Positions 1 to 49,100 of a stretch of 64,000 nucleotides of DNA are shown one piece after another. The position numbers were made by a program, and so were the translations under genes. The DNA is from Deltaproteobacteria bacterium. GTDB taxonomy: Bacteria > Myxococcota_A > Polyangia > DRWM01 > JAAZOP01. The DNA lies in the NCBI GenBank assembly GCA_016218765.1, contig JACRCZ010000085.1, forward strand, positions 871-64,870. The letters are read 5' to 3'. Every line of letters begins with the position of its first letter. Positions within the stretch are counted from its first letter, which is position 1. The notes beneath the pieces were generated by a model, which was not told the origin of the DNA, made no database searches, and worked only from the letters and a program-made list of their open reading frames with translations.

Positions 1-17
1 ACGATGGAGGCGAACTG

Positions 18-353
18 ATGCTCGAGATCGCGGGAGTCGAGAGCGAACTGGCCGCCGCGCGCGCATTCGCCGACAAGGTCGGCCTTCGCGACGACCTCGA
101 GCGGCAGCTGACCTACTTGGACGAGTACGCCGAGCACGGCGACCGCGGGAGGACCTGCTGTCGGCTCTACCGGGATTTCGCGCCCTACAGCTTCGGGTTC
201 GTCATGACCGTCCGCCGCGAGGGCGGCGTCCACAAGACGTGGTTCAACGGCGGCCTCCTGTTCCACGGTCCCCACGATCGAGGCGGCGATGGCAACGAGC
301 CGACCTTCGCCGTCTGCCTCACGCCCACGATGGGCTGGGCGATCCACACGTAG
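18..353 (+). CDS. hypothetical protein (111 aa)
   Basis: ORF with diverse amino-acid composition. It ends just before the GGAGGTG SD of the next gene. I recognise no family by eye. Confidence 0.4.
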   Translation: MLEIAGVESELAAARAFADKVGLRDDLERQLTYLDEYAEHGDRGRTCCRLYRDFAPYSFGFVMTVRREGGVHKTWFNGGLLFHGPHDRGGDGNEPTFAVCLTPTMGWAIHT

Positions 354-364
354 GAGGTGAACCG

Positions 365-1333
365 ATGTTCGAGAAGGCCCGGGCGGTGGAGACCGCCGTC
401 CATGCGATCCACCGCCAGTTCGGGGCCGGTAGCATCCTGTCGCTCGGCGACGGCGGCGCCGTCGAGCCGCTCGCGGCCATTTCCACGGGGTCCATGGGCC
501 TCGACGCCGCCATCGGCGTCGGGGGGCATCCCCGCGGCCGCATCGTGGAGTTGTTCGGGCCGAAGGGAGGCGGCAAGACGACCCTCGGGCTCCACGCCGT
601 TGCGGCGGCCCAGGCCACCGGCGGCATCGCCGCGTTCGTGGACGCCGGTCACACCCTGGACATCCGCTACGCCGCCGCGGTCGGGGTGCAGGTGGACAAG
701 CTCTACCTCTCGCAGCCGGACACCGGCGAGCAGGCCCTCGAGATCGTCGAGATCCTCTGCCGCTCGGGCGGCGTCGATCTCGTCGTCGTCGATTCCGTGG
801 GCGCCCTCGTGCCCCGCGCCCAGATCGAGGGCGAGGCGTTCGGCGAGTACGATGGGCTGCAGGCGCGGCTCCTGAGCCAGGCGCTGCGCAAGCTCACAGC
901 CGTCGCGCACCGCACCGGGACGTGCGTGCTGTTCGTGAGCGAGGTCGAGCGCGGCGCGACCGTCCCCTGCGCCAACGCGCTCAAGTTCTACTCGTCCGTG
1001 CGCATCGAAGTCCGGCACGTCCAGGACGCGAAGGACGGGGAGCGGACGCTGGGGCACGTGACCCGCGTCCGGGTCGTCAAGAACAAGGTCGCCCGTCCGT
1101 TCGGGGAGGCGGAGTTCGTCATTCGGCACGGGACGGGAATCGACCACGTCGCGGAGCTGGCCGAGCAGGCCATCACGCTCGGGGTCTTCGACGGATCGGC
1201 GGACCTGCCGGTTGCCGTCGCGCGCGACTCAGGGAAGCTGGCGACGGCGCTGCGGGAGAACGAGAAGCTGCGCCGCTTCGTGGAGGCGGAAGTGCGCGGG
1301 AGGCTCGGACTCCCGGAAATCGCTCGTTCCTGA
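365..1333 (+). CDS. RecA-family recombinase paralog (divergent)
   Basis: ATG preceded by GGAGGTG. Collinear with E. coli RecA over its full length: Walker A GPKGGGKTT, SQPDTGEQALEI, Walker B LVVVDSVGAL, NALKFYSSVR, VKNKVARPF. It deviates at the catalytic Glu (DAGHTLD vs DAEHALD) and has a shortened L2 loop. Confidence 0.85.
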   Translation: MFEKARAVETAVHAIHRQFGAGSILSLGDGGAVEPLAAISTGSMGLDAAIGVGGHPRGRIVELFGPKGGGKTTLGLHAVAAAQATGGIAAFVDAGHTLDIRYAAAVGVQVDKLYLSQPDTGEQALEIVEILCRSGGVDLVVVDSVGALVPRAQIEGEAFGEYDGLQARLLSQALRKLTAVAHRTGTCVLFVSEVERGATVPCANALKFYSSVRIEVRHVQDAKDGERTLGHVTRVRVVKNKVARPFGEAEFVIRHGTGIDHVAELAEQAITLGVFDGSADLPVAVARDSGKLATALRENEKLRRFVEAEVRGRLGLPEIARS

Positions 1334-1356
1334 CCATCGGCATCGAGGAGGAGAAG

Positions 1357-1557
1357 ATGAAGACCAAGTACACGGCCCGCGGGCCGAAGGGGGCGGTCCG
1401 CCGTCCGCTCGTCTGCCGCACGAGCGACCTCGACTTCGACTTCGGCGCCCCGCTGCTGCCGGACGGCCCCGCGCTGGGCAACCGCTGGCGCGTCGAACAC
1501 GTCGAGGAGGAGCGCGGGATGAGGGCGGACATCTACCGGGCCCTGGGGCTCGCGTAG
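1357..1557 (+). CDS. hypothetical small protein (66 aa)
   Basis: ATG preceded by GAGGAGGAG. It sits tightly between the RecA-like and clamp-like genes. No family recognised. Confidence 0.45.
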   Translation: MKTKYTARGPKGAVRRPLVCRTSDLDFDFGAPLLPDGPALGNRWRVEHVEEERGMRADIYRALGLA

Positions 1558-1566
1558 GAAGGGAGG

Positions 1567-2880
1567 ATGACGTTGACGACCATCGTCGCGGCGAAGCCGC
1601 TCGCGGGCGCCCTGGGCGCCTGCGCCTGGTGCCTGGAGAAGGACCCGCTCCACTTCCACCCGGGGCGCACGCGCATCGCCCGGGTGCCGGACGCGCTGGT
1701 CCTGGCCACGGCGACCAGGACCGAGAAGGTGAAGCTCCGGTTCCGCATCTCGTGCGAGCCCGGCGAAACCTGGATGGCCGTGGTCGATGCCGCCGGCACG
1801 TCCCGCCTGGCCAAGGCGTTGCGCCCCGTCATCGCCGGCAGGAAGAACGGCGGCGCCACGGTCGAGATCGAGCGCACCGAGCGCGCGCTCGTGCTGGCCG
1901 GCGGCGGCCAGCGGATGTCCGTACCGGCCTGCGAGCCGATGCCGGAGGACGCGGAGGCGCCGCGCGCCGGCGAGGCGACCAGCGTCGCGGGGGCGCGCGA
2001 TCTGGCGTCGCGGATCGCCGACGCGATGACGTTCTGCAAGCCCGCGGAGTACCGTGCCATCGCGAAGGGGCCGTTCGTCTACCTGGCGGCCGGCGACGGC
2101 GGCCTCGTCGTCCCGGTGGTCGTCGCCACCGACGGCCACCGGCTGTTCGTGGACGGCGACGCCAGGGACTGCGCGGACGCCAAGTTCGTGTTCCAGGTGC
2201 CCGGGGACGACTGGAAGCCGGCGGCCAGGGCGATGGTCGAGAGCTTCGACTTCGTCCGGCTCGTGCGCACCGTCGTCCCCCAGCCGGCCGAAGAGGACGG
2301 AAAGAAGGCGCAGGAGAAGTCGCTTTGGTGCCTCGTGTTCGAGTCGGCCGACCGGCGGGTCGAGATCGCCGTCGGCGAGCCCGAGACGTCGCTCCCGCAC
2401 TGGGCCGGCTTCGTGCCGCGGGAGACGGCGAATCCCGACCTGTCGGTCGCCTGCGACCGCGACGAGCTGGCGGCCGCGGTCAAGGCGACGGCCGGCGTGA
2501 GCAGCGAGAACGGCGCGGCCTGCATGTTCCGTGCGGACCCCGCGACCGGGCTGCTGCGGATCGCGACGTACACCGACGCCGACGGCGGGACGGCACAGCG
2601 CGAGATCGCGGCCGACATCCGCCATGCCCCGGCGGGCTTCGTGCACCTCTCCGGAAAGTACGTCCTGGACGCGCTCGGGGCGGTCCGAACGGACCGCGTG
2701 CGCATCTGGCAGCACGCCGCACCGCTCGACGCGGTCCGGCTCATCGAGGTCGCCGGCGACGGAGCCACGCTCCGGCCCCGCGCGATGGTCGTCATGCCCA
2801 TCCGCGGCCACGACCCGGTGGAGAGCACGAGTGCCGACGAGTCGGCGCAGGACGCCGCCCCGCAGGCGGCTGCGCTGTAG
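1567..2880 (+). CDS. DnaN-like beta sliding-clamp homolog (437 aa)
   Basis: The VVATDGHRLF motif matches DnaN VATDGHRLA. The C-terminal third is collinear with E. coli DnaN domain III (LSGKYVLDALGAV..., ...AMVVMPIR vs FNVSYVLDVLNAL..., YVVMPMRL). GGGAGG lies directly upstream, so the start could be TTG at 1573. Confidence 0.7.
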   Translation: MTLTTIVAAKPLAGALGACAWCLEKDPLHFHPGRTRIARVPDALVLATATRTEKVKLRFRISCEPGETWMAVVDAAGTSRLAKALRPVIAGRKNGGATVEIERTERALVLAGGGQRMSVPACEPMPEDAEAPRAGEATSVAGARDLASRIADAMTFCKPAEYRAIAKGPFVYLAAGDGGLVVPVVVATDGHRLFVDGDARDCADAKFVFQVPGDDWKPAARAMVESFDFVRLVRTVVPQPAEEDGKKAQEKSLWCLVFESADRRVEIAVGEPETSLPHWAGFVPRETANPDLSVACDRDELAAAVKATAGVSSENGAACMFRADPATGLLRIATYTDADGGTAQREIAADIRHAPAGFVHLSGKYVLDALGAVRTDRVRIWQHAAPLDAVRLIEVAGDGATLRPRAMVVMPIRGHDPVESTSADESAQDAAPQAAAL

Positions 2881-2902
2881 CCGGCAGGAAGGAGACATCG
2901 AC

Positions 2903-3424
2903 ATGAGGATCATCATGATCGCCGTCGTCGTCGCCACGATCGGGACGGGGTGCTCGAAGATGGAGGAGCCCGGCAGCATCCCGGTGACCATCAACGCCGA
3001 TGTCGCCGCGCTGCCCCGGCGGTGCCCGGCGTGCGCCGAGTGCCCCGAGCCGGAGCCGTGCCCCGAGTGCGAGACGGTGGATGCGATCTACTACTCGATG
3101 CTCCACCGCATCGAGCGCGGGAGGCCGGAAGGCTACGTCAGCACGGCCCACGTCCATCGGGGCGGCAGGTGGTACCTGGTCGCCAACGTGTTCCCGGACG
3201 GGATGGAGGGCCCGAGCGGCGCGCCGGTGGCCGACTTCGACGTCGGCAACGCGCTGCTCGCCCACGTTCGCGCGCACCCCACGGACGTCGGCGTCAAGAC
3301 GATCGCCGGCGACGACTACGCCCAGCGCGGCCGCGTGCTGGCGAGTTGGCAGCCGTTCGACCGGATCGAGGACGCGCCCGGCATCCGGGCCTCGCTCGCC
3401 AGCGTGTTCGTGCTTCTGGAGTAA
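2903..3424 (+). CDS. putative lipoprotein with CPxC-rich segment
   Basis: N-terminal MRIIMIAVVVATIGTGC (signal plus lipobox-like Cys). GGAAGGAG SD upstream. Contains a CPACAECPEPEPCPEC motif. Confidence 0.6.
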   Translation: MRIIMIAVVVATIGTGCSKMEEPGSIPVTINADVAALPRRCPACAECPEPEPCPECETVDAIYYSMLHRIERGRPEGYVSTAHVHRGGRWYLVANVFPDGMEGPSGAPVADFDVGNALLAHVRAHPTDVGVKTIAGDDYAQRGRVLASWQPFDRIEDAPGIRASLASVFVLLE

Positions 3425-3432
3425 TCACGGTG

Positions 3433-3472
3433 GGCGGGTCTCCCGGGGGCAAGCTCTCCCGGGGGACCCGCC
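3433..3472 (+). terminator. GC-rich stem-loop between the lipoprotein and radC-like genes
   Basis: GGCGGGTC (3433-3440) pairs with GACCCGCC (3465-3472). Inner duplicated TCCCGGGGG palindromic units could extend the stem. There is no U tract. Confidence 0.3.
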
Positions 3473-3490
3473 GACATCAGGGAGGACAAC

Positions 3491-3934
3491 GTGACCATCT
3501 GCCATTGCCCGCGGTGCGGCGAGCCGGTGCCGGCGGAACAGGCGCCGCCGTCGCTTCGCTGCTCGGCCGAGGTCTACGAGAAGTTGGGGCGTTCCCTCGC
3601 CCGTCGCAGGCAGGAGCGCTTCGTCGTAGTGGCACTCGATGCGCGCAACCGGCCCATCCGCTGCCACGTCGTCGCCGTCGGCTCCGTCGCCGCAGTCGTC
3701 GTGCATCCCAGGGAGGTGTTCGCGCCGCTCATCCGCGACAGGGCGGTCGCCGCGATCGTCCTGCACAACCACCCGTCGGGCGGGCCGGTCGAGCCCAGCG
3801 TCGAGGACGCCGAGATCACGCGTCGCCTCGCCGACGTGGGCCGGCTACTCGGCATTCCGCTGCTCGATCACGTCATCGTGGGGAAGAACGGGTACTGCTC
3901 GATGAGGGATCTGGGCCAAGTCCGCTTCCCGTAG
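3491..3934 (+). CDS. radC: RadC-like JAB/MPN domain protein
   Basis: GTG start with GGGAGG SD. Carries the JAMM-type motif HNHPSG, then EPSVEDAEITRRL and LLDHVIVG, typical of the RadC C-terminal domain. An N-terminal CxxC is present. Confidence 0.85.
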   Translation: MTICHCPRCGEPVPAEQAPPSLRCSAEVYEKLGRSLARRRQERFVVVALDARNRPIRCHVVAVGSVAAVVVHPREVFAPLIRDRAVAAIVLHNHPSGGPVEPSVEDAEITRRLADVGRLLGIPLLDHVIVGKNGYCSMRDLGQVRFP

Positions 3935-4132
3935 CAGCCGCGATGGCGACGTTGATCCCGGACCGGAAGATGGCGTACGACGCATTCGTCCGGGCGCCTG
4001 CCGGTCGAGGACGGCCGCGTCCGCACGGACCACGGAGCCGTGCCGTGACAGGTGTCGGGAGGAAGGCGCCGACATCTTCTTCGACCGCCGACGTGGCGAT
4101 TCCGCTATCGTCGGTGATCGCTCGAAACGGGG

Positions 4133-6151
4133 GTGATGGCAATGCGGAACACTCGGACATCGAACAGGCGGAAGGAGGGGAAACGCTCGCGGGCCGACAT
4201 CGAGAGGGTGGCCGGCTTGCGGAAGCGCTTCGCCACGCTCGCCGCGCAGCTGGAACTGTCGACGACCGAAGGGGTGAAGCAATCCACGCTCGGTTTTGAC
4301 CCGATGCCTCCCGCGAAGTTGGTCGCTTCTTGGCTCGACCGGACGGGGGCCGCTGCGCCCACGGTCGCGACGGCGTGTCGGACCTGCGACGCTCGGGGCC
4401 GTACCTGCCCACGGCCTCTGGAGCGGCCCCGGTACCTGCCCGCCGACTGCATCCCGTGCGTAGAGCAGTGCGAGGCGGCCCTGCGGTGCCTTCCGCCACC
4501 GGTCGACGCCACCGGCATCGCCCGTGGTGAGCCGCGGAACCAGGAGGCTCGGGGCAACGGTCACCCCCTCGAAACGGCGTCGAGCCATGTGGAGCCTGCC
4601 CGTTCGCGGCCGACTGGATCGGCCGATTCGCTACCAGCCGGGCGACGCGATCATCCCCGGGCCGATCGGTGCGTGCGCGGGCTCTCGACAGACCTCGCCT
4701 CCGCGGGCGAGGCGACGTCGGCGACTCGGACAGCGGAACATCTCTCGCGGCAGAGAGATCTGGCGGCTGCGCGCGTCGAGCGAATCGACCGCGCTCTGGC
4801 TGCCCCCTGCATAGCTGGACTGCCCGGAAGTTGCTCCCGGCTCTTCCCGGACGTGGTCAGGCTCGGGGTCGTCCGCTTGCGCGCTCCCCGTCTGCGCCCG
4901 CTGTCGGTTCTGCTCGACTGGGTCGGCTCGCATGGTGCCGTGCCCCAAGAGCCTCGGGCGTTCATCGATGCCCTGGAGGTTGCGTCGGACCTGAGGTGGC
5001 ATCGCTCCCGCTGCGGCGGCTGTCTATCCGCTCAGGCTTGGTCCGGTCATCCCACGGGCGACATCCCGATGGTGCAGTCGACGGCAGCGTCTCTTGAGCA
5101 GGCCGTGCAGGACCTGGAGATTCGGCCAGGTTTCGCTCCCGAGGAACGAGAACGCGTCGCCACGCTGATCGCAGCGTCCGGCGACTTCGAGATCCACATG
5201 GCGAGCAAGGCGCCCCGTCTTGATGATGATGACCTCACCGCGGAAGTCGACCACTTCTACGACTGGTTCAGGGGCGCCTACCACTGGGCGTTCTACGCGC
5301 CTCGCGGCGTCCAGGGCCAGCCTCGCGCCGTCCGGGACTACGTCGCCTACGCGGAGCGAGAGGCGATCCGGAAGGCTCTCCGCGCGGGCGCACGGGTGCT
5401 TCGGACCTCCGACGGCGACTTCGACGAGGTGCTTTCGAAGGCCGAAGATGTCGTCAGAACCGCAATGCGAGGGTTCTACCGGGCGTTCGAGCCGGAGGCC
5501 GTGGCGTTCCTGACCGGGAAGCGAAAGCACGGAGGCTGGACGCTCGACGCGTTGCGGATGCCGGTCGCCTGGAAGCCGGAGGGCCTCTACTGGCCGTATG
5601 CCGCCACCCTCGAAGGCTGGTTCGAAGTTCGCTGCATGCGCTTCATCGGTCCCCTGTTGCTGCTCATGGGTGTCGGACTGCGAGCGATGGTCGAGCAGGA
5701 CGATCGGGTAGAGCGGGATTTCGCCCGCATCTGCGCCGAGCTTGGACACACGGGGAGGGACCCCATAGTGTGGGTCGCGAAGCTGGTCCCATCGATTCGA
5801 TTTGAACTCGTCAGGGCGTGGAGTCGAGCTCGGGCGGGTGCGGACCCCAGGGCGGCGGCGCTGATGGACCTTCTTGAGGGAGTGCCACGACTGAGCAAGG
5901 CGGCGAAGTCCCGCGGCGGCCTGCTCCCAGCCTTCGCCGCGGATGCGCTGGAAGCCATGCTGCGCGGAGTCAGCCTCGATTCCATCCGCAACCTAGCCAC
6001 CAAGCACTCCAAGAGCGCCCGCGAGAAGACCGAGGCCCGGCCGCGACGAAGGGCGAAGAAGCCGAGCACTCGGGCGTGTCGGCGGACCGCCGACCGCACC
6101 GGCGACGCAGTCCCCCGCCACCCGCATTCCGTCACGACACGTCCCGGGTAA
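4133..6151 (+). CDS. large hypothetical protein (up to 672 aa; alternative start ATG 5069)
   Basis: Third-codon-position G/C is strongly enriched along the whole frame, as I read it codon by codon. The C-terminal half (from MVQSTAAS) has ordinary protein composition with a basic tail. No family recognised. Confidence 0.5.
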   Translation: MMAMRNTRTSNRRKEGKRSRADIERVAGLRKRFATLAAQLELSTTEGVKQSTLGFDPMPPAKLVASWLDRTGAAAPTVATACRTCDARGRTCPRPLERPRYLPADCIPCVEQCEAALRCLPPPVDATGIARGEPRNQEARGNGHPLETASSHVEPARSRPTGSADSLPAGRRDHPRADRCVRGLSTDLASAGEATSATRTAEHLSRQRDLAAARVERIDRALAAPCIAGLPGSCSRLFPDVVRLGVVRLRAPRLRPLSVLLDWVGSHGAVPQEPRAFIDALEVASDLRWHRSRCGGCLSAQAWSGHPTGDIPMVQSTAASLEQAVQDLEIRPGFAPEERERVATLIAASGDFEIHMASKAPRLDDDDLTAEVDHFYDWFRGAYHWAFYAPRGVQGQPRAVRDYVAYAEREAIRKALRAGARVLRTSDGDFDEVLSKAEDVVRTAMRGFYRAFEPEAVAFLTGKRKHGGWTLDALRMPVAWKPEGLYWPYAATLEGWFEVRCMRFIGPLLLLMGVGLRAMVEQDDRVERDFARICAELGHTGRDPIVWVAKLVPSIRFELVRAWSRARAGADPRAAALMDLLEGVPRLSKAAKSRGGLLPAFAADALEAMLRGVSLDSIRNLATKHSKSAREKTEARPRRRAKKPSTRACRRTADRTGDAVPRHPHSVTTRPG

Positions 6152-6192
6152 CTGCGACCGCCGCGTACTGGCCCGGGCGGTAGCCTGGGTTC

Positions 6193-6435
6193 ATGCTCGG
6201 ACGCAGGCCATCGCAACTTCGTCTTCGGCGCCTGGCCCTCGGTCTTCGGATCCGCGATGTGGCGAACGCCTGCGGTCTCGCGGACGCCAGGGTCTCCGAG
6301 ATCGAGCGCGGGGACGGCAGAAACCCTGACGCCGTCGAACTGGCGCTGATCGAAGCGACCCTGCGCAAGAACGAAGCTGCTGACGAGTCGACGGCCCCGG
6401 CGCAGAGCCCGCCGGACCGACGGGGGCTGGCATGA
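6193..6435 (+). CDS. XRE-family helix-turn-helix regulator (80 aa)
   Basis: LRRLALGLRIRDVANACGLADARVSEIERG is a classic Cro/C1-type HTH. The stop overlaps the next start (ATGA). Confidence 0.7.
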   Translation: MLGRRPSQLRLRRLALGLRIRDVANACGLADARVSEIERGDGRNPDAVELALIEATLRKNEAADESTAPAQSPPDRRGLA

Positions 6436-7139
6436 CCGACCGAGTCCCCGGCCACCTGACGGCCCAGAGCGGGACGAACGGCACCGCGCCGTCGTCCGAA
6501 GGTGACCGACCGGCGTCGTCGTGGTGGTTCACCGCGGAGCAGGCCGCCAAGTACGTCGGCTACCGCGGTTCCTCCGCCATTCGCATGGCCGTATGCCGCG
6601 GGGCGCTCGTCCCCCGCGGGCGACGCGGCCGCGCGCTGATGTTCCACCGAGCAGATCTCGATTCGTTCCTCCAGCGGGGTGCCCGCATTGGCGGGCACCC
6701 GCTTCCCGATCAGCTGGCAACGGAGGCCGGCAACCATGAGACGGAAGACGAAGTACCCCGGCGTGACGCAGATCGGCCCGGGCAGGTACGAACTCCGCGC
6801 CCAGATCCGGGTGGCGGGCTCGGACAAGTGGACCTGGGTCAGGAAGCGCGTCGAGGCGGCCAACACCGAGGAGGCCGCCGACGCCCAACGCAAGCTCCGG
6901 ACGGACCTAGTGTCCGCGAAGACCGAGGCCCCGTCATCCCCGCAGTACCCGACCCTTACGGACTACGCGCGATCGTGGCTGGCCCGGAGGAAGACGAGGG
7001 GGGCGAAGCCGTCGACGCTCGCGAGAGCGGCGCAGGTCCTGGAGCAGGGGATCCTTCCGGTGCTCGGCGACCGCAGGGCGGACGAGATCCGGAAGAACGA
7101 CATCGAGGAGTGGCTCTCGTGGGCGGCGAAGAGCCGTAG
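6432..7139 (+). CDS. xis: excisionase/MerR-type HTH DNA-binding protein (3' end uncertain)
   Basis: WFTAEQAAKYVGYRGSSAIRMAVCRGALVP...FHRADLDSFL resembles Xis/AlpA winged-helix proteins. The start is translationally coupled to the XRE gene. The frame has no stop until 7139, so about 400 nt overlap the integrase out of frame. Confidence 0.5.
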   Translation: MTDRVPGHLTAQSGTNGTAPSSEGDRPASSWWFTAEQAAKYVGYRGSSAIRMAVCRGALVPRGRRGRALMFHRADLDSFLQRGARIGGHPLPDQLATEAGNHETEDEVPRRDADRPGQVRTPRPDPGGGLGQVDLGQEARRGGQHRGGRRRPTQAPDGPSVREDRGPVIPAVPDPYGLRAIVAGPEEDEGGEAVDARESGAGPGAGDPSGARRPQGGRDPEERHRGVALVGGEEP

Positions 7140-7962
7140 CCAGAAGCGGCGCATCCGGTCGCCCGAGACGATCAACGGGTGGCTGCGCCTCCTGAAGACC
7201 GTGCTCCGCGACGCCGTCGGCGACCTCGATCTTCCTCGCGACCCGACCTTCCGCGTCAAGGGTCTGCCCGCACGTCCCACCCGTATCACCGACGAGCAGC
7301 CGAACTCGCTGACGGACGACGAGCTGCGGCGTTTCCTGGACGCGATGCCCGGGGAGACGGCCGAGATCCGCGCCCTCTGCGTGGTCGGGTTCTTCACCGG
7401 AATGCGCTTCGGCGAGATCTCCGCCCTGACGTGGAACGACGTCCGCGAGGACGCGGGGCTTCTGCTCATCCGCCGATCGCACTGGCGCGGGAAGGTCACG
7501 ACGACGAAGACCGGGAAGAACCGCTCTGCCGCGCTGCATCCGGTCATGCTGGGGGCGCTCCGCGAGCAGCGGAAGGTACTGCTGGAGCGCCACCTCCCGG
7601 CGATCGGCGCGGCCCTCGTGTTCCCGAGCGCGACGGGCGGCTACCACGTCCCGTCGTACCTCGAGAAGCCGTTCCGCCGGATCCTGAAGGCGGCGAAGAT
7701 CGAGAAGCACCTCTCGGCGCACGGGATGCGCCGGACGTTCAACAACCTCATGCGGCAGGCTCGCGTCGATCGTGTCGTGCTTCACGCGACGATCGGGCAC
7801 AGCTCGGAGTCGATGACGGAGCACTATTCGAACGTGCGCCCGGAGGAGAAGCTCGCCGCGGTCAACCAGCTGGTCGAGTCGGCGCGGCTCGATCAGATTT
7901 GGCTATTTCGTTGGCTATCGGGGGTCAACGGCACTTCGACGCCTTCGGGATCGTCGCCCTAA
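6736..7962 (+). CDS. int: tyrosine recombinase / phage-type integrase
   Basis: GGAGG SD 9 nt upstream. Has an N-terminal SAM-like domain and a C-terminal catalytic region (GMRFGEI, HGMRRTF, GHSSESMTEHY; R-H-R-Y pattern). It lies adjacent to a tRNA gene. Confidence 0.9.
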   Translation: MRRKTKYPGVTQIGPGRYELRAQIRVAGSDKWTWVRKRVEAANTEEAADAQRKLRTDLVSAKTEAPSSPQYPTLTDYARSWLARRKTRGAKPSTLARAAQVLEQGILPVLGDRRADEIRKNDIEEWLSWAAKSRSQKRRIRSPETINGWLRLLKTVLRDAVGDLDLPRDPTFRVKGLPARPTRITDEQPNSLTDDELRRFLDAMPGETAEIRALCVVGFFTGMRFGEISALTWNDVREDAGLLLIRRSHWRGKVTTTKTGKNRSAALHPVMLGALREQRKVLLERHLPAIGAALVFPSATGGYHVPSYLEKPFRRILKAAKIEKHLSAHGMRRTFNNLMRQARVDRVVLHATIGHSSESMTEHYSNVRPEEKLAAVNQLVESARLDQIWLFRWLSGVNGTSTPSGSSP

Positions 7963-7990
7963 ACCATCGACGCTGTTGCTGAAATCGGAG

Positions 7991-8062
7991 AGCGGGAGAC
8001 GGGATTTGAACCCGCGACGTCCACCTTGGCAAGGTGGCACTCTACCACTGAGTTACTCCCGC
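7991..8062 (-). tRNA. tRNA-Gly (anticodon GCC), CCA not encoded
   Basis: The reverse complement folds as a cloverleaf: acceptor GCGGGAG/CTCCCGC, anticodon stem CCACC/GGTGG with loop TTGCCAA, T arm GCGGG-TTCAAAT-CCCGT. Length 72 nt. Confidence 0.9.
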
Positions 8063-47757: not shown

Positions 47758-48912
47758 CTACTCGGACTTCCCGGCGTTCAAGGACACGACCTCGCCAGAC
47801 CGAAGGGTCCCGGTCCCGCCAAGCCGCCCGTAGTCGGCGGCGAAGGCGGACGGAGCGAGGTGCGCGTAGCGCATGGTCATCTGGATCGACTGGTGCCCCA
47901 GGATCTTCTGGAGACGGAACAGATCGCCGCCCTTGCGCATGTACGCGGACGCGAAGGTGTGGCGCATGTCGTGAAAACGGATGTACCGGACCACGCGGTC
48001 CCCGATCATCGTCGTCGGGAATCCGGCGGCATCTAGAACACGGTGCAGCACCTCTTGGAAAACGCGCGCCGACGGGCCGTGCATCTCGTGCGCCTCGTTC
48101 GGGAAGACCAGGGGGCCAGGGCAGCGCAGCCGCCACGCGCGGAGAACCGGCAGGAGAGGATCGAGGATCGGAACGTGGCGCACGCGGTCGCTCTTCGTCG
48201 GCCCGTCGAAACTGCGCTGCACCGTGATCAGCCGACCGTCCAGATCAACATCCTCCCAGAGCAGCGCCGCAAGTTCGCCCGCCCGCATCCCCGTGTAGAT
48301 CGCCGCGGCGTACAGCACGAACACGTTCTCGCCCTCCGCGCGGGCCGCCGTCAGGAAGCGGATGATCTCGTCGTCGGTGCGAAGGTACCGGTAGTCCCGG
48401 CGGAAGATCGGAACGCGGGGCTTGCGGATGCGGGGCAGGATCGCCAGCCATCCGAGATCGCGCGCCGCCCTCAGCATCGAAATCAACAGCGTCAAGATGT
48501 TCGCGACGGTCTTCCGATCGAGCCGCTCCCGCTCCGCAACGAAGCGATCGACGTGCTGCACGCCGAGCACCCGAAGACGCGACGGACCGAACGCAGGGCG
48601 GAGGTGGCGACGGATGATGCTCTCGTCGTCCTTGCGGCTGCGCTTCCCGGCCGCTCGGTTCGCGATCCAGTAGTCGGCGAGTTCGTCGAACGTCTTCTCG
48701 GGCGGGGTCGGCGCACGCAGCCCGCGGCGGATCTCCTCGACCTCGGCCTGGTGCTGGTGCAGCTTGAACGTGGCGTCACGGCGATCGTCGTAGACCTCGC
48801 TGCGGCGCTCGCCGTTCTCGTCGAGCCACCGGATCCGCCATTTCCCGCGATGCTGGATCGGCTTCGCCACGGCCTTGCTCCTACAGCGAGCAAGGACCGG
48901 CGGCACCTGCAA
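47758..48912 (-). CDS. int: tyrosine recombinase / phage-type integrase
   Basis: YTGMRAGEL, HDMRHTFAS and LGHQSIQMTMRYAHL (R-H-R-Y catalytic pattern). Lies adjacent to the intact tRNA-Met. Confidence 0.9.
   Translation of the reverse strand: MQVPPVLARCRSKAVAKPIQHRGKWRIRWLDENGERRSEVYDDRRDATFKLHQHQAEVEEIRRGLRAPTPPEKTFDELADYWIANRAAGKRSRKDDESIIRRHLRPAFGPSRLRVLGVQHVDRFVAERERLDRKTVANILTLLISMLRAARDLGWLAILPRIRKPRVPIFRRDYRYLRTDDEIIRFLTAARAEGENVFVLYAAAIYTGMRAGELAALLWEDVDLDGRLITVQRSFDGPTKSDRVRHVPILDPLLPVLRAWRLRCPGPLVFPNEAHEMHGPSARVFQEVLHRVLDAAGFPTTMIGDRVVRYIRFHDMRHTFASAYMRKGGDLFRLQKILGHQSIQMTMRYAHLAPSAFAADYGRLGGTGTLRSGEVVSLNAGKSE

Positions 48913-49025: not shown

Positions 49026-49100
<75 letters not shown>

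Follow-up and report, generated by a model that had tools for sequence, protein, structure and literature searches.

Positions 1–8032 of the stretch of DNA analysed here, referred to as the window, are best read as the integrase-proximal arm of a mobile, integrative element that belongs to an undescribed family, so far found in uncultured Myxococcota only. We put the probability of this reading at about 0.65. The window is 64,000 nt long and comes from contig C36 of a metagenome-assembled genome (MAG) of an uncultured Myxococcota, designated G000 (G000:C36:871–64870); the contig extends just 870 nt further left. The MAG comprises 5.9 Mb in 154 contigs, is 79.6% complete and has about 72% guanine plus cytosine (GC). 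As a tRNA island the element is ordinary. Its family is new, and it encodes two unusual DNA-metabolism proteins, a derivative of RecA and a divergent beta sliding clamp. It may matter as a member of an element family of uncultured Myxococcota that is conserved, was not described before and has no recognisable means of transfer.

Integration into tRNA-Gly

Genes were identified from a listing of open reading frames (ORFs), a tRNA scan and profile scans against Pfam, PHROGs and NCBIfam, with PADLOC for defence systems. The whole gene series up to the integrase is co-oriented on the + strand and runs up to the 3′ end of tRNA-Gly(GCC). The scans recovered all the genes named by the first-pass annotation of this DNA, with an XRE-Xis-Int module reading into the tRNA as it described. 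The integrase stop and the tRNA 3′ end are 27 nt apart, not 28 nt as given there. The catalytic R...HxxR...Y of the integrase is present, with GMRFGE, HGMRRT and MTEHY legible in the translation. The protein is 93% identical to the integrase of G002:C19, a contig of a related genome, which is located at the same tRNA.

The attachment (att) core includes the 3′-terminal 43 nt of the tRNA, which insertion therefore regenerates. Partial copies of window 7985–8032, 48–49 bp long and 100% identical, occur in G004:C160, G002:C3 and G002:C1, each adjoining an integrase. In G004:C160 a different island of 10.6 kb, whose integration module is of the same type, occupies the same tRNA-Gly and is bounded by an exact 74-bp direct repeat. 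Its XRE, Xis and Int are 67% (XRE 67.5%), 41% and 58% identical to their window counterparts. The att copies beside integrases, together with this bounded island, indicate that tRNA-Gly is an integration hot spot and that the genes next to it are accessory. These data show site-specific integration in the 3′ half of tRNA-Gly by a tyrosine integrase.

Three different integrases in G002 each lie beside a copy of the tRNA-Gly att (G002:C3:27859–34645, G002:C1:19867–21088 and G002:C19:18845–20252), which suggests tandem accretion of islands. One of the G002 islands carries an apparent type I restriction-modification system of three large ORFs, assigned by reading the sequences alone.

Distribution of the island

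The comparison set comprised 31 related genomes, 20 of them high-quality. Homologues of the clamp were present in 4 of the 31, all of one genus, and in none of the 20 high-quality genomes. The clamp cassette is absent from G003, a 99%-complete member of the genus, and the 6 kb downstream of tRNA-Gly in G003 contain no homologue of any island gene. Elsewhere the cassette adjoins tRNA-Gly (G002:C19), tRNA-Phe (G004:C135) and tRNA-Arg(TCT) (L028, a JGI contig). The window copy is a mosaic. Its int module has 91% DNA identity to G002:C19, its RecA and clamp genes have 76–80% identity to G004, G002:C3 and L028, and positions 3935–6525 are unique to this copy in the DNA comparison with the relatives. 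The genes are accessory, and the island is not core DNA.

The proposal of the first-pass annotation that this is an island with the tRNA 3′ end as its att site is thus borne out by the patchy distribution, the three tRNAs, the att copies and the 74-bp repeat in G004:C160. The annotation had also named two observations that together would point to core genes, namely the lack of a repeat of the tRNA 3′ end and conservation of the locus in all relatives. The repeat is indeed absent from the assembly, but the conservation fails, the genes being found in 4 of 31 genomes. The idea that core chromosomal genes merely happen to adjoin the tRNA is consistent with the GC content of the island (0.67–0.73), which is just slightly under that of the neighbouring DNA, and with the G000 assembly containing no second att copy. 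It is nevertheless as good as refuted by the distribution, with the genes missing from 27 of 31 relatives including the 99%-complete genus member. The three different tRNAs and the presence of an integrase, Xis and att repeats also speak against it.

Gene content of the arm

The features of the arm are as follows; positions are those of the window unless a contig is named.

G000:C36:141–477, + strand: Zn-ribbon gene upstream of up2, 5′-truncated with the first ~28 codons gone; 60–82% identical to relatives
1–15, + strand: last codons of up2, a 126-aa element ORF (entire ORF G000:C36:505–885); 67% identical to G002:C19:13884–14252
18–353, + strand: DUF4120 protein, 111 aa (PF13496, 4.9e-11)
365–1333, + strand: RecA derivative, 322 aa (PF00154, 1e-93; TIGR02012, 338.9 bits against a cut-off of 325.3)
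1357–1557, + strand: 66-aa ORF with a conserved RTSD(L)DFDFGAP(V/L)L motif
1567–2880, + strand: DnaN-like protein, 437 aa, predicted divergent three-domain beta sliding clamp (PHROG_947 'processivity factor', 4.7e-12; fold match of an AlphaFold2 [AF2] model)
2903–3424, + strand: putative lipoprotein, 173 aa (signal peptide ends ...IGTGC)
3491–3934, + strand: RadC-like JAB protein, 147 aa (PF04002, 5.8e-38, full domain covered)
4133–6151, + strand: near-orphan cargo ORF, open frame of 672 aa (conserved part ~4811–6151)
6193–6435, + strand: XRE-type helix-turn-helix (HTH) regulator, 80 aa (HTH_3, 1.3e-7)
6432–7139, + strand: Xis-like HTH_17 ORF (PF12728, 1.3e-5, 25.8 bits, below the 27-bit cut-off; HTH at residues 32–83)
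6733–7962, + strand: tyrosine integrase, 409 aa from ATG 6733, frame open from 6679 (PF00589, 4e-22; phrog_1, 2.3e-61)
7985–8032, no strand: att core of at least 48 bp, the tRNA 3′-terminal 43 nt plus 5 nt downstream
7990–8062, − strand: tRNA-Gly(GCC), intact (tRNA scan)

The element in related genomes

Homologous elements in the relatives are at least 25–35 kb long, and 21–42 kb of each was read (G004:C135, 35–42 kb; G002:C3, 25 kb; L038, 21 kb). They extend well upstream of the part that corresponds to the window, in agreement with the earlier proposal that the window holds one arm of a larger element. The gene order starts with a divergently oriented DUF3854 gene (Toprim-like, primase-like) with a P-loop domain, a Zn-finger protein and a PD-(D/E)XK exonuclease (phrog_1218). 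These are followed by a 251-aa protein, an AAA ATPase, DUF1257, DUF2997 and a small radical-SAM protein (NrdG/QueE-like), and then by a DUF3150-like protein, a ComM-like Mg-chelatase-family ATPase and a run of small ORFs including DUF3085. Next come the Zn-ribbon, DUF4120, the RecA derivative (in some copies only), a 63–67-aa ORF, the clamp and RadC. The series ends with genes of no assigned family, XRE, ParB_N, HTH_17 and Int. The conserved core of the integrase-proximal arm consists of the Zn-ribbon, DUF4120, the 63–67-aa ORF, the divergent beta clamp and RadC. Further DNA-metabolism genes had been expected upstream of the window, and the relatives do carry them there: the ComM-like gene, the PD-(D/E)XK exonuclease, the primase-like DUF3854 gene and the AAA ATPase.

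No terminase, portal, capsid, tail, relaxase, coupling-protein or VirB4 family was found in the window or in the 21–42 kb of the relatives with Pfam, PHROGs and NCBIfam. The element had been called a prophage or an integrative conjugative element (ICE). Since no recognisable virion or transfer families occur, with the homologous elements followed over 25–42 kb, both labels are unsupported. Literature searches on this combination of DUF families and on clamp/RadC/RecA islands yielded no description of the element family.

The element can be compared with two kinds of known systems. It shares with tRNA islands that have a phage-type tyrosine integrase (P4-like, Mx9-like) the integrase acting on a tRNA 3′ end, an att over the 3′ half that regenerates the tRNA, Xis/HTH_17 and XRE beside int, and tandem accretion at one tRNA in relatives. 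It differs from them in that its cargo and backbone fit no described island, phage or ICE family, and in that the second att of this copy was not found. The leading regions of conjugative plasmids and ICEs (ssb, psiB, ardA, Sog/TraC primases, radC, parB-like genes) resemble it in having a primase-like gene, RadC, ParB_N and a candidate RecA-directed factor. This likeness would be one of function, in that the kit suits the entry of single-stranded DNA, and no membership is claimed. The element differs from leading regions in that no relaxase, oriT or type IV secretion system (T4SS) was found in it. Its candidate anti-RecA factor is a RecA derivative and not a PsiB homologue, and leading regions as known have no element-encoded beta clamp.

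The RecA derivative

The RecA derivative shares with canonical RecA (TIGR02012) a full-length core at 50–60% identity. In the alignment with E. coli RecA, it keeps Walker A (Lys72), Walker B (Asp144) and the polymer interface (F217, K248 and K250). It differs in its catalytic Glu96, which is not conserved, being Gly here and E, D, G or S across a 15-member clade. It also carries the Q194E change (NQ to TE), found in nearly all clade members, and a deletion in loop L2, which is 8 residues shorter in 15 of 15. The C-terminal domain gave no match to RecA_C (PF21096). The clade is monophyletic (100/100) with a stem of 0.59, and groups (96/91) with chromosomal RecAs whose motifs are intact, one of them encoded next to a comM gene. 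The ratio of non-synonymous to synonymous substitution rates (dN/dS) of the RecA derivative is 0.21–0.27, a sign of purifying selection. As judged from the alignment and the dN/dS values, the recombinase hallmarks are shown to be lost, yet the gene is maintained by selection. A RecA variant that is under selection and keeps the polymer interface, with L2 and the Gln194 switch lost and Glu96 no longer conserved, is a candidate modulator of RecA filaments. It resembles ImuA as a RecA-fold protein without recombinase hallmarks. Identity with ImuA itself was rejected, the ImuA model scoring 43.7 bits against a cut-off of 150.

The gene is optional in the family, and the elements G002:C19, G001:C454 and L037–L040 are without it. 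The element subclade that includes this copy gained it between DUF4120 and the small ORF. A chromosomal comM-recA pair of a related Myxococcota, with recA directly after comM, was observed at L048:4337–7053 (JGI 3300038679 contig, 282 kb). The ComM-like protein of the element is 52% identical to the L048 comM product, and the products of this pair are the closest intact relatives found of the ComM-like protein and the RecA derivative. This suggests that both may have been captured from a chromosomal comM-recA pair.

The first-pass annotation called the gene a RecA paralog. It is RecA-like, but paralogy within G000 is not demonstrable, as the 79.6%-complete assembly contains no other recA-family gene. 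Most relatives have two canonical RecAs that score 474–568 bits, against ~340 bits for the element type. The host recA genes of G000 presumably lie in the missing 20% of the genome.

The beta clamp and the small ORF

The AF2 model of the DnaN-like protein, made with 16 homologues, has a predicted local distance difference test (pLDDT) score of 81. Foldseek matched it to bacterial beta clamps, among them those of M. tuberculosis and P. aeruginosa, with an E value of 1e-21, a template modelling (TM) score of 0.70–0.80, ~430 aligned columns and ~20% identity. By its predicted fold the protein is a true three-domain beta clamp. It gave no Pfam match, and TIGR00663 scored 19.1 bits against a cut-off of 137.65. 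Its family is tiny. Homologue searches covered 5.8e9 proteins, in which it forms 17 clusters. A further search for the clamp among 1.84e9 representatives returned ~10 at E<1e-10, followed by a gap until ordinary DnaN at E ~1e-9. The canonical host dnaN is on contig C42 (245.8 bits), and the element clamp is not the replicative clamp of the cell.

The TDGHRL and MP.RG.DP segments are invariant in the 16-member clamp alignment. The corresponding residues of E. coli beta, 172–177 for TDGHRL and 362–365 for MP.RG, line the peptide-binding pocket. On that basis the pocket for clamp-binding motifs appears to be kept. The protein thus has in common with DnaN and phage processivity factors (PHROG_947) the three-domain fold and the TDGHRL and C-terminal MPxR pocket segments. 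It differs from DnaN in being ~60 residues longer, in its Cys-containing N-terminal domain and in being always preceded by the 63–67-aa ORF.

The small ORF lies directly 5′ of the clamp gene in 8 of 8 element contexts, either 10–15 nt away or overlapping the clamp start. Its motif, RTSD(L)DFDFGAP, is conserved in the alignment and recognisable though altered in the most divergent member. The alternating hydrophobic and acidic residues presumably resemble the C-terminal clamp-binding motif of the DNA polymerase III alpha subunit. What could make the pair significant is a beta clamp on a mobile element that has a conserved partner pocket and always travels with a tiny ORF.

Proposed mechanism

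The element may establish and replicate itself by means of its own DNA-handling kit (the primase-like gene, exonuclease, ComM-like helicase, clamp and RadC), not a virion or a mating pore. A clamp with a canonical pocket could compete for host polymerases or load them onto the DNA of the element. With no L2 contact to DNA and no coupling to ATP through Gln194, the RecA derivative most plausibly acts on host RecA filaments. As its nucleotide-binding and polymer interface residues are kept, it could co-polymerise with host RecA and blunt it. SOS and recombination would then be weakened during the periods when the element is excised or in single-stranded form. PsiB and ImuA curb RecA by other means.

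More tentatively, and with the odds clearly against it, the RecA derivative, the 63–67-aa ORF and the orphan clamp may form a joint takeover module encoded by the element. In such a module the RecA derivative would act on host RecA filaments by capping or poisoning them, and the clamp would redirect to element DNA those host polymerases that bind clamps, the small ORF perhaps serving as an adaptor. If true, this would be a new establishment route, open to a mobile element in which neither virion nor conjugation genes can be recognised.

Left end and state of this copy

No repeat of the tRNA-Gly 3′ end of at least 18 nt was found elsewhere in the G000 assembly by exact 14–20-nt k-mers and blastn-short. 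The matches were two other tRNA-Gly genes and chance 11–15-mers only. The MAG is incomplete, so that the island reading survives the missing repeat. The first 140 nt of the contig (C36:1–140), located 730–870 nt left of the window, are 100% identical to the contig ends C42:1–140 and C111:181259–181397, and all three diverge at nt 141. An assembly graph with k=141 in which a multicopy repeat had collapsed would be expected to give this pattern. The Zn-ribbon gene begins at C36 nt 141, directly at the repeat, minus its first ~28 codons. The 140-nt repeat has no counterpart in the four genus relatives. The left junction was sought through synteny with the G003 empty site and with the tRNA-Phe flank of G004, and gene order was too diverged. 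The left arm of the G000 copy is either unassembled or deleted.

The G000 contigs contain no close homologues of the left-arm genes, only a 45–50%-identical second element on C5. This second element (G000:C5:41203–51613) belongs to the same family, and its exonuclease, 251-aa protein, small ORFs and RadC show 45–68% identity. It has no clamp and no RecA derivative.

Alternative explanations

Several observations weigh against the reading as an integrative mobile element with its own DNA-handling kit. G000 contains no attL, excised circle or left arm, and mobility of this copy is not shown. The left boundary was found in no relative, and the 54 kb upstream of the G004:C135 copy contain no repeat of the tRNA-Phe end of at least 13 nt. 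About half of the element genes have no family match, and these might include a relaxase, capsid or packaging gene of a new kind. For the clamp, the RecA derivative and the small ORF alike, function is inferred. The clamp evolves fast (dN/dS 0.39–0.75), which fits a role in conflict as well as one in replication. When the small ORF was modelled with AF2 as a fusion to the clamp, by readthrough of the TAG codon, there was no docking signal, the small part having a pLDDT of 27–51 with almost no alignment depth there. A serious possibility, somewhat short of even, is that this copy is a decayed remnant, in which an IS-like multicopy repeat was inserted or mediated a deletion, and the left arm was lost. 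About 8.8 kb of cargo and integration module would then be fixed at tRNA-Gly and immobile. The identity of the three contig ends over 140 nt, their divergence at nt 141, the truncation of the Zn-ribbon gene exactly there and the occurrence of left-arm homologues on C5 only (45–50% identity) agree with this. Contigs past a collapsed repeat are readily lost from a bin, however, the MAG being 79.6% complete, and the genes of the retained arm are all intact. Such decay would refine the mobile-element reading and does not exclude it.

The arm could instead belong to an integrative conjugative or mobilisable element, the cassette being the establishment module of its leading region and the relaxase and T4SS lying elsewhere or escaping recognition. 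RadC, ParB_N, DUF4120, DUF3085, DUF3150 and DUF3854 are families typical of conjugative elements. All are present in the elements, with DUF3854 as a Toprim-type primase, and a primase, a clamp and a RecA modulator would fit the protection and replication of incoming single-stranded DNA. We hold a conjugative origin to be unlikely, since a relaxase, coupling protein or VirB4 was seen in no copy and none of 72,556 plasmid records matched the clamp. A temperate prophage or phage satellite, its structural genes unassembled or too divergent, would account for the many short co-oriented ORFs, the phage-like int-xis-XRE layout and the PHROG matches to the exonuclease (phrog_1218), the NrdG/QueE-like radical-SAM protein and the processivity factor. 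This appears less likely still, given that the three elements read over 35–42, 25 and 21 kb (G004:C135, G002:C3 and L038) have no terminase, portal, capsid or tail family and that the sole match of the clamp among phage records is 30% identical at 2e-4. A different question is whether the clamp and its small neighbouring ORF, perhaps together with the RecA derivative, are a conflict module and not replication equipment. They might be an addiction pair, in which a decoy clamp neutralises a peptide that targets clamps, or they might act against phages or against defence systems. The two genes are invariably adjacent and both evolve fast (dN/dS 0.4–0.9), and toxins that target the clamp, such as SocB, are known (reviewed in PMC5812544). 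Such a role seems improbable to much the same degree as the prophage, as there is no PADLOC match, the fusion model shows no docking between the two, and an antitoxin of 440 aa would be unusual.

Other genes of the arm

The DUF4120 gene is immediately 5′ of the clamp cassette in all relatives, and the RadC gene is kept downstream of the clamp in all of them. The RadC/JAB metal site H-x-H...S...D is intact (HNHPSG...S..D), with LHNHPSGGPVEPSVED legible in the translation. The putative lipoprotein has no family match in Pfam, PHROGs or NCBIfam; weak homologues occur at the equivalent position in G002:C19 (41%) and G002:C3 (27%). The ~875 nt past RadC (window 3935–4810) have a weak coding signal and no conserved homologue, and the relatives have 3–4 small ORFs there.

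The ORF described earlier as a 672-aa orphan is an open frame of that length, but its full length is not supported as a gene, only residues 227–652 being conserved. A single homologue was found among the 5.8e9 proteins, aligning to those residues only. The N-terminal third has a weak third-position GC signal. The real gene within the frame probably encodes ~446 aa (~4811–6151). The ORF had no match in Pfam, PHROGs, NCBIfam or PADLOC. In the arm as a whole PADLOC found no defence system, with weak HTH matches for the XRE gene only.

The Xis-like frame runs open for ~400 nt inside the integrase gene, and the same open overlap is present in G002:C19; its 3′ end is uncertain. In the relatives, HTH_17 genes of 111–171 aa lie directly 5′ of int. 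The integrase start is most likely ATG 6733 (MRRKTKYPGV..., compared with MPRKVQVPGI in relatives).

Another tyrosine integrase lies at window 47821–48717 (− strand) and adjoins tRNA-Met (49026–49100, − strand). It is 27% identical to the integrase at tRNA-Gly. Window 39–49 kb has a lower GC content (0.65–0.69). The region of the tRNA-Met integrase is presumably the 'first' island of the window.

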